Shown here: positions 5,988 through 8,922 of the stretch, in pieces
Numbering within the stretch: the stretch's first letter is position 1
Layout of the letters: each line of letters starts with the position of its first letter
DNA from: a virus
Taxonomy: Duplodnaviria; Heunggongvirae; Uroviricota; Caudoviricetes
IMG/VR virus record: IMGVR_UViG_3300045988_024768
Location: 1 to 20,162 of that record
Reading direction: 5' to 3' (one strand)
DNA length: 20,162 nt
The notes under the pieces: model-generated
The model's database searches: none
What the model was told of the DNA's origin: nothing
What the model saw: the letters and a program-made list of their open reading frames with translations, nothing else
Position numbers and translations under genes: made by a program

Positions 5988-8458
5988 TGGCTATCAGTTG
6001 GATCCAGCCCAGCTTTGCCGGTGGTGAGATTGGACCGTCGTTGTACGGTCGTATCGACATGGCGAAGTACCAGGTGGCATTGCGCAAGTGCGATAACTTT
6101 ATCGTGCGGCAGTATGGCGGCGTTGAGAATCGACCTGGTACGCGTTTTGTCGGTGCCGCCAAATACCCAAATCGGAAATGCCGCCTGATCCCGTTCCAGT
6201 TCTCGACGGTTCAGACCTATGCTCTGGAGTTCGGACACCAGTACATGCGCGTTATCAAAGATGGTGCGTTGGTGCTGAACAGCAGCAATGTTATTTATGA
6301 AATTGCCACGCCATATACTGAAGCCGATCTGTTCAGAATTAAATTCACGCAAAGCGCAGACGTGCTTACGCTGGTTCACCCGGCATACCCGCCGAAAGAG
6401 TTGCGCCGATATGCTCATGACAACTGGCAACTGGTTGATGTGGTAACGAAGAACGGGCCATTTGAAGATATCAATATTGACGAGTCAGTGACGGTTTATG
6501 CCAGCGCCAGCACCGGGACAATTACGTTAACGGCAAGCGCCTCTATTTTTGGCGCGGAGCAGGTAGGCAAATTGTTCTATCTGGAACAGCCAGCAGTGGA
6601 TTCAGTACCGGTATGGGAAACCAGTAAGAGTACGTCGATTGGCGATATTCGCCGTGCAGACAGTAACTACTATCGCGCCGTTACAGCAGGCAAAACAGGC
6701 ACTTTGCGCCCTTCGCATACAGAAGGCACATCATGGGATGGCTGGGGCGGCTCCGGTGATGATGATACTGGCATTGAGTGGGAGTATCTGCACAGTGGTT
6801 TTGGCATTGCCCGTATAACTGCTGTAAATGGCACTACTGCAACTGCTGAGGTGATTTCCTATATCCCTTCGCAGGTCGTTGGCGAGGATAATGCCAGCTA
6901 TAAATGGGCTAAATATGCCTGGAACAGTGTTAATGGTTATCCTGGCACTGTTGTTTATTATCAACAGCGTCTTTACTTCGCCGCATCGACTGCGTTCCCT
7001 CAGACTATCTGGGCCAGCCGTACTGGGGATTATAAGGATTTTGGCAAAAGCAATCCTACGCAGGATGACGACAGAATTATCTACACCTATGCCGGGCGTC
7101 AGGTTAATGAGATCCGCCACCTGATTGATGTTGGTTCGCTGGTGGCGCTGACTTCCGGAGGTGAGTACGTCATCACCGGCGACCAGAACAAAGTGTTAAC
7201 CCCATCATCATTTGCATTCAGCTCTCAGGGATCAAATGGCTCAAGCAACGTCCCACCAATTGCCGTGGCGAATATTGCTCTGTTCGTCCAGGAGAAAGGC
7301 AGTGTTGTCCGTGATCTGGCCTACTCATTCGATGTTGACGGCTATCAGGGGAACGACCTTACTATCCTTGCCAATCATCTTTTTCAGAAGCACAGCATTG
7401 TTGACTGGTGCTTCTCTATTGTCCCTTACTCCAGCGCCTTCTGCATTCGTGATGACGGTAAATTACTGGTGATGACCTATTTGCGTGATCAGCAGGTTTT
7501 TGCATGGGCACCACAATCCAGTACCGGAAAATATGAAAGCACATGCAGTATCAGCGAAGGCAATGAAGATGCAGTGTATTTCGTCGTTAACCGAACCGTT
7601 AACGGGCAAACAGTGAGATACATCGAGCGACTGTCCAGCCGTTTATTTACCAGCGATGAAGATGCTTTCTTTGTTGATTCTGGCCTTAGCTATGATGGAA
7701 GAAATACGTCTGACAGAACGATGACCATCACTGGTGGTTCTGGTGAATGGGATTACCACGCGGAATATACAATCAGTGTTTCTGGTGGTGCGTACTTCAC
7801 CAGTAGTGATGTTGGTGCGCAACTACAGTTCCCTTATACCGGAGCTGATCCTGATACTGGCGATGAAGTGTCAAAAGAATTACGTTGCGACATTATTTCT
7901 GTAACCAGCAACACCGCTGTAGTGGTTCGTGCTAACAGGAACGTCCCGCCATCCCTCAGGAATGTGGCCACCACGAACTGGCAGATGGCGCGCCGGACAT
8001 TTGGCGGCTTGTCTCATCTTGAAGGCCAGACCGTAAACATCCTCTCTGACGCGAACGTGGAACCACAAAAAGTGGTTTCCGGAGGTGCCGTCACGCTGGA
8101 ATCACCGGGGGCTGTTGTGCACATCGGCCTGCCAATAACTGCTGAATTCGAAACACTGGATATCAACATTAACGGACAGGAAACGCTGCTGGACAAAAAA
8201 CAGGTGATCCCCTCCGTTACTCTGGTTGTGAATGCCAGTCGCGGCATCTGGGCGACTACGCCCGGCGGTAAATGGTACGAATATCCACAGCGTGAATTCG
8301 AGTTCTACGATGATCCTGTTGATGATGCTACCGGAAAAGTAGAAGTGAAACTGGACAGTAACTGGGGCAAAAACGGACGTGTAAAAATCCGTCAGCTTGA
8401 TCCGTTGCCGCTGTCTGTTCTTGCCGTTATTCCTCGCCTTACTGTTGGGGGATTCTGA
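5987..8458 (+). CDS. Tail tubular protein B (nozzle), T7 gp12-like by size and synteny
   Basis: 823 aa, start overlaps the gp11-like stop (ATGA), GAGG RBS. T7 gp12 is about 794 aa at the same position. No direct sequence motif recognised. Confidence 0.55.
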   Translation: MAISWIQPSFAGGEIGPSLYGRIDMAKYQVALRKCDNFIVRQYGGVENRPGTRFVGAAKYPNRKCRLIPFQFSTVQTYALEFGHQYMRVIKDGALVLNSSNVIYEIATPYTEADLFRIKFTQSADVLTLVHPAYPPKELRRYAHDNWQLVDVVTKNGPFEDINIDESVTVYASASTGTITLTASASIFGAEQVGKLFYLEQPAVDSVPVWETSKSTSIGDIRRADSNYYRAVTAGKTGTLRPSHTEGTSWDGWGGSGDDDTGIEWEYLHSGFGIARITAVNGTTATAEVISYIPSQVVGEDNASYKWAKYAWNSVNGYPGTVVYYQQRLYFAASTAFPQTIWASRTGDYKDFGKSNPTQDDDRIIYTYAGRQVNEIRHLIDVGSLVALTSGGEYVITGDQNKVLTPSSFAFSSQGSNGSSNVPPIAVANIALFVQEKGSVVRDLAYSFDVDGYQGNDLTILANHLFQKHSIVDWCFSIVPYSSAFCIRDDGKLLVMTYLRDQQVFAWAPQSSTGKYESTCSISEGNEDAVYFVVNRTVNGQTVRYIERLSSRLFTSDEDAFFVDSGLSYDGRNTSDRTMTITGGSGEWDYHAEYTISVSGGAYFTSSDVGAQLQFPYTGADPDTGDEVSKELRCDIISVTSNTAVVVRANRNVPPSLRNVATTNWQMARRTFGGLSHLEGQTVNILSDANVEPQKVVSGGAVTLESPGAVVHIGLPITAEFETLDININGQETLLDKKQVIPSVTLVVNASRGIWATTPGGKWYEYPQREFEFYDDPVDDATGKVEVKLDSNWGKNGRVKIRQLDPLPLSVLAVIPRLTVGGF

Positions 8459-8922
8459 TGATTGATGTTCAAATTATTCCCGCAACCGAAGAGCATCTTC
8501 AGATGATTTTGCCGGATGTTCGTCAGGCTGATATTGACGAACTGTATGCGGTATCGCTGATGACTACCGAAGATGCGCTGCGTGTTGGTCTGCGCACTGC
8601 GACCATGGCCTGGTCAGGATTTGCAAACGGAGAACTGGTAACCATGTTTGGTGTATCTCCGGCGTCAATGATTGGTGGCAATGGTACGCCATGGCTGGTC
8701 GGAACCAGCCGTATTGAAAAATATCAGAAGACATTTCTTCGCCACTGCCGCCCTGTATTGCAGCAGATGCTGGCAGTTTATCCGCGCCTGGAAAACTACG
8801 TCGACGAGCGAAACCATGTTGCCAAAGCATGGCTGCACTGGCTTGGATTCAGGCTTGAAGAAGCCGCGCCTTATGGTGCTCTTGGTCTTAATTTCCACAG
8901 ATTTCACATGGAGAGAAAATAA
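8458..8922 (+). CDS. Small protein with GNAT-acyltransferase-like signature (154 aa)
   Basis: N-terminal IIPATEEHLQMIL resembles GNAT beta1, and the C-terminal NHVAKAWLHWLGFRLEE resembles GNAT motif B. A Gly-rich MIGGNGTPWLVG stretch sits where motif A would be. Pattern recognition only. Confidence 0.45.
   Translation: MIDVQIIPATEEHLQMILPDVRQADIDELYAVSLMTTEDALRVGLRTATMAWSGFANGELVTMFGVSPASMIGGNGTPWLVGTSRIEKYQKTFLRHCRPVLQQMLAVYPRLENYVDERNHVAKAWLHWLGFRLEEAAPYGALGLNFHRFHMERK

Follow-up and report, generated by a model that had tools for sequence, protein, structure and literature searches.

The gp13 protein of phage T7, internal virion protein A (IVP-A), 'matches as an acetyltransferase' and is described as a non-structural assembly protein for the internal virion proteins (IVPs; Hardies et al. 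2016, PMC4819975). The passage of that paper citing Kemp 2005 states that morphogenesis requires T7 IVP-A and that the virion does not retain it, and in a T7 review (PMC8811829) gp13 appears among the proteins needed for infection, with its location unknown. Absence from the mature virion together with a need for infectious particles is reported for T7 alone (PMC4819975, PMC8811829). A GNAT protein encoded beside IVP genes has been equated with T7 gp13 (Bischoff et al. 2019, PMC6775973), and the GenBank record of phage epsilon15 (AY150271.2) annotates gp13 as 'acetyltransferase; HHpred: 3fbu_A Acetyltransferase, GNAT family'. Our literature searches found no function reported for gp13/IVP-A beyond 'assembly'. 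Here we analyze the corresponding gene (positions 8458-8922, plus strand) in a stretch of viral DNA of 20,162 nucleotides (IMG/VR record IMGVR_UViG_3300045988_024768; the whole stretch is hereafter called the window). In view of the epsilon15 record and the reports of Hardies et al. and Bischoff et al., the GNAT fold assignment is already known, and the GNAT likeness of the window gene adds nothing new. The remaining interest lies in what IVP-A does, and in a testable association between IVP-A and a cysteine at position 2 (Cys2) of IVP-B, the product of the next gene.

Identity and distribution of the IVP-A gene

The genes for virion structure in the window are those of a temperate podophage resembling epsilon15 and phiV10 (genus Uetakevirus), and positions 5900-9500 are 98.5% identical at the DNA level to Escherichia phage phiV10. 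The original prediction, made from the DNA letters alone, had spoken of a T7-like operon, a description that does not hold for this phage; T7 belongs to the lytic Autographiviridae, whereas the window phage is a temperate Uetakevirus. That prediction was accurate as to the open reading frame, which starts with ATG and encodes 154 amino acids, and as to the three peptides it quoted (residues 6-18, 71-82 and 119-131). The protein is 99.4% identical to PhiV10p16 (YP_512270.1) and 63% identical to epsilon15 gp13 (AAO06076.2), both of which have the same length and likewise lie between gp12 and gp14; the window gene amounts to PhiV10p16, with no substantive difference. The epsilon15 record also mentions 'one transmembrane domain' for gp13, which is at odds with the confident globular model of the window protein. 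Table 1 of PMC8954989 lists epsilon15 gp11 (229 amino acids), gp12 (499 amino acids) and gp13 (708 amino acids) as gp14-, gp15- and gp16-like ejection proteins; AY150271.2 differs, giving gp11 as a 201-residue tail tubular protein A, gp12 as 825 residues and gp13 as the 154-residue GNAT protein, and the entries of the table seem to describe a different genome.

The window protein matches the 'internal virion protein' family phrog_308 over residues 3-154 (E 9e-63). Its relation to T7 gp13 emerges from profiles: the single sequence reaches 13.6 bits against Pfam PF11090 (Phage_T7_Gp13, formerly DUF2833), under the cut-off of 25, and 45% probability against T7 gp13 in hhalign, while PF11090 is matched by 71 of 133 representatives of IVP-A relatives (32-55% identity), the set used for all conservation statements below. 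Profile-profile comparison of these 133 sequences (A2) with the T7 gp13 family (A3) gives 97% probability (hhalign, E 9e-11, 131 columns). The original prediction had an enzyme standing in place of the small internal protein usual at this position; the phrog_308 and T7 gp13 matches place the protein in precisely that known internal virion protein family, the outcome that the prediction itself had named as speaking against it. A search of NCBIfam with the window protein gave no match.

IVP-A is conserved in thousands of short-tailed phages, infecting enterobacteria, pseudomonads, SAR11, Prochlorococcus and roseobacters. An exhaustive profile search (E ≤ 1e-3) retrieved 9212 clusters at 50% identity, with lengths of about 150-160 amino acids in almost every case, and tblastn located the gene in 177 phage records, whose hosts span from Pelagibacter and Prochlorococcus at one end to Xanthomonas and Ralstonia at the other. 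The best structural matches in BFVD (TM 0.72-0.88) are mostly named 'Internal virion protein A' or 'putative acetyltransferase' and come from Vibrio, Pseudomonas, Dickeya, Pasteurella, Ralstonia and marine phages. The slot that characterizes the family, a protein of about 135-160 amino acids encoded between tail tubular protein B and a gp14-like IVP-B, is present in the window, and the same order is common to T7, epsilon15, Prochlorococcus phage P-SCSP1d, Pelagibacter phage Hroenn, Pseudomonas phage Tr60_Ab31, Roseobacter phage CRP-361 and Caulobacter phage SR18. The window gene is an ordinary, previously annotated member of a known family: it is the ortholog, in Uetakevirus, of the 'internal virion protein A' of podophages (T7 gp13 family), and its product is a single-domain GNAT-fold protein. 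In Xanthomonas/Xylella phage records LR743529, LR743523, MW822537 and MW822538 the ortholog is labeled 'polyketide synthase', probably a mis-transfer from the GNAT-like loading domains of polyketide synthases.

T7 gp13 is homologous to the window protein over its full length, at only about 21% identity, and likewise lies upstream of a gp14-like gene with a Met-Cys start. Positions shared by the two (window/T7) include D25/D21, E28/E24, W79/W61, N113/N99, V115/V101, N119/N105, L126/L112 and G130/G116, of which D21 and E24 are invariant in the T7 gp13 family. The gp14 protein of phage P22 (PF11039, DUF2824, 'head morphogenesis') has the same fold and the same genomic slot as IVP-A. Profile comparison by hhalign gave P22 gp14 only 0.2% against the window family (A2 vs A4) and 1.1% against the T7 gp13 family (A3 vs A4), and the window protein does not match PF11039. 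P22 gp14 was therefore rejected as a demonstrated sequence relative, the similarity not being reproduced; the likeness is one of fold and slot. Given that likeness, the T7, epsilon15 and P22 lineages, at least, have a GNAT-fold protein encoded directly ahead of their first ejection protein.

Fold and conserved residues

The predicted model of IVP-A has the order β1-α1-α2-β2-β3-β4-α3-β5-α4-β6-β7 and can be superposed on solved GNATs; this is the fold by which the GNAT superfamily is recognized. Sequence models do not identify IVP-A as a GNAT protein. The Pfam search that the original prediction had proposed as a check gave no match of the window protein to any GNAT family (Acetyltransf_1, _3, _7, _10 and others) at E ≤ 0.1, and searches of the PDB with the single sequence, a 40-sequence profile (A1) and the 133-sequence profile (A2) gave no significant match. 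The sole relevant result of the PDB searches is a sub-threshold alignment of YjaB (2kcw) to motif B of IVP-A. This weak alignment pairs N119, A122, G130 and F131 with the canonical motif-B residues of YjaB.

Conservation is strongest in β5 and α4 (8788-8850), the motif-B region, which reads L111-x-N113-Y-V115-D116-x-R118-N119-x-x-A122-x-x-W125-L126-x-W128-L-G130-F131. The pattern N-x-x-A ... G-F that marks motif B is present on β5-α4, with N119, A122, G130 and F131 nearly invariant. The peptide that the original prediction had called motif-B-like is indeed α4, and its beta1-like peptide corresponds to β1 plus α1. Its assignment of the Gly-rich stretch to the acyl-CoA-binding motif A turned out otherwise: MIGGNGTPWLVG (8668-8703) forms the turn of the β3-β4 hairpin and strand β4, in which G76, P78 and W79 are conserved. 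The position of the GNAT pyrophosphate loop is instead the β4-α3 connection SRIEKYQKT (residues 84-92; 8707-8733), which contains no Gly, varies more across the family than any other segment and has no conserved Gly columns.

In the amino-terminal half the conserved residues are R22, D25 and E28 on α2, G65, and G76, P78 and W79 on β4; in the carboxy-terminal half they are L111, N113, V115 and D116 (β5), R118, N119, A/S122, W125, L126, W128, G130 and F131 (α4), and G140, F146 and F149. The α2 motif R22-x-x-D25-x-x-E28 (8521-8541) is near-invariant in the 133 relatives, and the face that it forms is a candidate acceptor-binding or catalytic face. In GNAT structures, β4, β5 and the start of α4 make up the region of the acyl-transfer cleft, and we count the concentration of conservation on these elements in favor of catalysis. 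IVP-A has lost the canonical coenzyme A (CoA) pyrophosphate loop and has retained the β4/β5/α4 core around the usual acyl-transfer cleft. The GNAT acyltransferase signature originally proposed thus stands in part: the predicted structure supports the fold, and the lack of a Pfam GNAT match and of the canonical acetyl-CoA loop tells against the enzyme activity. The fold does not by itself imply that IVP-A is enzymatically active.

The Met-Cys start of IVP-B

Window IVP-B begins with Met-Cys-Asp-Pro (ATGTGC, 8922-8927), followed by a hydrophobic stretch. The epsilon15 gp14 protein begins MCSP and T7 gp14 begins MCW, and the same start occurs in the IVP-B proteins of the cultured phages P-SCSP1d (MCNP), Hroenn (MCSP), CRP-361 (MCDP) and SR18 (MCIP). 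For a broader sample, 120 IMG/VR loci were collected by means of a degenerate DNA pattern inside IVP-A, a scan that biases the set toward the NYVDxRN...WLxWLGF subfamily, and the downstream gene could be extracted in 105. When these were clustered at 50% identity, IVP-B started with Met-Cys in 24 of the 26 clusters. L015 and L092, which looked like two further exceptions at clustering levels of 70-90%, also have Met-Cys once their starts are corrected. The residues past Met-Cys diverge among clusters (MCDP, MCWM, MCVS, MCSI, MCIM, MCFP and others), and Cys occupies position 2 in just 2 of 533 other open reading frames (at least 100 amino acids) of the same loci.

We considered whether Cys2 could be an artefact of the overlapping stop and start codons (ATGTGTGA). 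Both Cys codons are in use (TGC 52, TGT 49) and the offset at the IVP-A/IVP-B junction takes ten different values between -16 and +11 nucleotides, which rules this out; what is conserved is therefore the amino acid.

The Met-Cys start also tracks the presence of IVP-A. In phages CW02, phiKMV and SP6 the slot between tubular protein B and IVP-B holds no GNAT gene, and their IVP-B proteins begin MGIEV, MAFWL and MAIGT, respectively. Met-Cys starts and other starts stand at 29:3 where IVP-A is present and at 0:3 where it is absent (Fisher p = 0.003, shared ancestry uncorrected). This association suggests that IVP-A acylates the IVP-B amino terminus.

A possible role for IVP-A in acylation of IVP-B

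The mechanism that we prefer, and put forward tentatively, has IVP-A acylating the amino-terminal Cys of IVP-B, with a thioester as the donor. IVP-A would act on IVP-B in the cytoplasm of the infected cell during assembly, a setting taken from the T7 literature. Removal of the initiator Met would expose the Cys. A Cys at the amino terminus of a protein can be acylated through thioester exchange and a subsequent S-to-N shift; as donor, IVP-A could use acyl-CoA held in a non-canonical manner or an acylated acyl carrier protein (acyl-ACP). Chemistry of this kind at a Cys could explain why the usual general acid/base residues would be dispensable. Acylation would then ready IVP-B for assembly into the core and/or insertion into the membrane at ejection. 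The more specific proposal, that IVP-A is an N-terminal acyltransferase dedicated to the invariant Cys of IVP-B, which like T7 gp14 is an ejection protein that forms a pore in the outer membrane, with a non-canonical donor site possibly for acyl-ACP or long-chain acyl-CoA, we consider unlikely.

The toxin-activating acyltransferases (HlyC/ApxC), FemX and L/F-transferase have GNAT-like folds without the CoA P-loop, and their donors are non-CoA thioesters or esters such as acyl-ACP and aminoacyl-tRNA. That GNAT-like enzymes using such donors also do without the CoA loop is counted here in favor of catalysis. HlyC lipidates a pore-forming protein and thereby enables its membrane insertion, which is a possible working analogy for the IVP-A/IVP-B pair. 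The N-terminal acetyltransferases (archaeal Ard1/Naa10, Naa30, Naa50, RimI, RimJ and RimL), which have catalytic Glu/Tyr residues, resemble IVP-A in structure only, at 7-17% identity, and carry the acetyl-CoA loop Q/R-x-x-G-x-G/A that IVP-A lacks. Of the features of a RimI/Naa10-type enzyme, the acetyl-CoA loop and the catalytic Glu/Tyr, the loop is absent from IVP-A and a Leu stands opposite the YjaB Tyr.

Several observations weigh against acylation of IVP-B. None of the 133 relatives matches a Pfam GNAT family at E ≤ 0.01, and a regular-expression search finds the Q/R-x-x-G-x-G/A loop motif in three of them. The P-loop glycines are likewise unconserved in the T7 gp13 family, where the consensus is RLxxKxK; T7 gp13 itself has R-L-S-G-K-A, with a Gly that its own family does not keep. 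The residue of IVP-A that faces the YjaB Tyr on α4 is L126, and the T7 clade does not keep D116, having W and G at window positions D116 and R118. On the substrate side, Tr60_Ab31 (MGAAL) and the IMG/VR loci L004 (MSGIA) and L118 (MAQAL) have IVP-A and an IVP-B without Cys2, although the small second residue would allow Met removal in all three. The set without IVP-A is very small, at three lineages. P22 gp7, in contrast to the Met-Cys IVP-B, starts ML and loses 20 amino-terminal residues to OpdA, and literature searches found neither an N-terminal modification of gp14/IVP-B nor any mention of its N-terminus. Finally, the 98-residue protein of the Salinivibrio phage CW02 described below starts MCNP, so that the Met-Cys motif may serve another purpose.

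In CW02 (L131) the IVP-A slot holds an alternative small protein, as noted by Hardies (PMC4819975). This protein, gp42 (27829-28125, minus strand), replaces IVP-A and begins MCNPNIV. The IVP-B of the same phage is gp41, which begins MGIEV, while gp42 carries the motif seen on IVP-B elsewhere.

The missing loop and Pfam matches bring into view an IVP-A that transfers no acyl group at all. It would be a pseudoenzyme serving as scaffold or chaperone, binding the hydrophobic ejection proteins, handing them over to the portal or core during procapsid assembly, and then leaving. We regard this as possible, though short of an even chance. It sits uneasily with the location of the most conserved block on β4, β5 and α4 (G76, P78, W79, N113, V115, D116, R118, N119 and A122), the cleft region of GNATs in general, and it leaves both the near-invariant Cys2 of IVP-B and its absence where IVP-A is missing unaccounted for. 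A described pseudo-acetyltransferase, the HAT-like domain of O-GlcNAcase, is eukaryotic and part of a multidomain enzyme, with a biology unrelated to that of IVP-A.

Fusion proteins bear on both readings. Some relatives of about 310 amino acids (P0147 and P0170; L004, 6001-6933) join IVP-A to a canonical Acetyltransf_1 domain with the loop sequence R-K-x-G-A-G. They occupy the same slot, after the nozzle gene; P0170 lies on a 38.9-kb epsilon15/BPP-1-like contig. These fusions show that acyl-transfer chemistry has been recruited to the IVP-A slot, and they are equally compatible with IVP-A being a degenerate, substrate-binding half. It is also conceivable, if improbable, that IVP-A is an active acyl- or acetyltransferase with another target in the cytoplasm late in infection; candidate targets are lysines or N-termini of other proteins of the core, portal or tail, and host proteins or metabolites. 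In another relative, P0226, two IVP-A-like domains follow one another in tandem. On the fusion-bearing contig L004, the last internal-protein slot (9977-12933) is a gene of 2285 amino acids with faint domains of the polyvalent-protein kind (LPD22, ART-PolyVal).

The IVP-A gene shares single-nucleotide overlaps with its neighbors. Three such junctions follow in succession, TGATG at 8456-8460, where the stop codon TGA of tail tubular protein B overlaps the IVP-A ATG, and TAATG at 8920-8924 and 9465-9469, each with a Shine-Dalgarno-like sequence 5' of it. The IVP-A gene is therefore embedded in a tightly coupled operon that runs from the nozzle to the ejection proteins, and in the best reading its translation goes together with that of the nozzle gene before it and the ejection-protein genes after it. 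This location, and the name 'internal virion protein' in databases, would suit the role first proposed for the gene, that of an enzyme packaged in the virion that modifies virion or host components at cell entry. The passage in PMC4819975 citing Kemp 2005 reports T7 IVP-A as absent from the virion, and we consider a packaged entry enzyme very unlikely.

If IVP-A does acylate the amino terminus of IVP-B, the first ejected and membrane-inserting protein, podophage genome delivery would gain a new step, with relevance to the engineering of internal-protein fusions. Under the more specific proposal of a dedicated acyltransferase, lipidation or capping of the first ejected protein ahead of its packaging would be common to many podophages, and would account for the decades-old requirement for T7 gene 13 and for the Met-Cys start shared among very divergent IVP-B proteins.

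Organization of the virion module

The genes given here with coordinates between 5382 and 16553 are on the plus strand. In its 5' part the window encodes a portal, a scaffold/protease-like protein, a GP7-type capsid protein, a Bbp16-like protein and the gp10 staple. These are followed by tail tubular proteins A and B, IVP-A, a T7 gp14-family protein, three large internal proteins and the tailspike. Tail tubular protein A (5382-5987; phrog_394, E 2e-86) is epsilon15 gp11/T7 gp11-like and corresponds to PhiV10p14, and tail tubular protein B, the nozzle (5987-8458; phrog_376, E 0), is epsilon15 gp12-like. IVP-B, of the T7 gp14 family, has 181 amino acids (8922-9467; PF24072, E 8e-8; phrog_418, E 3e-71). 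The second and third large internal proteins are an epsilon15 gp16-like internal protein (12271-14073; phrog_1145) and an epsilon15 gp17-like virion/core protein (14079-16553; phrog_684).

At the far end of the window, an open reading frame on the minus strand (19844-20065) matches the carboxy-terminal part of Pfam Acyl_transf_3 (E 8.6e-5, under the cut-off). This frame may be the terminal portion of a gene for a membrane O-acetyltransferase of the O-antigen-modification kind, cut by the window edge, and it has no relation to the GNAT gene.

The first of the three large proteins is an epsilon15 gp15-like internal/ejection protein with a lytic transglycosylase region (9467-12274; phrog_992 and related), whose true start is probably the ATG at 9467. 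Its gene measures 2808 nucleotides, compared with 2514 in PhiV10p18, a difference of about 294 nucleotides (98 amino acids) within a module that is otherwise 98% identical.

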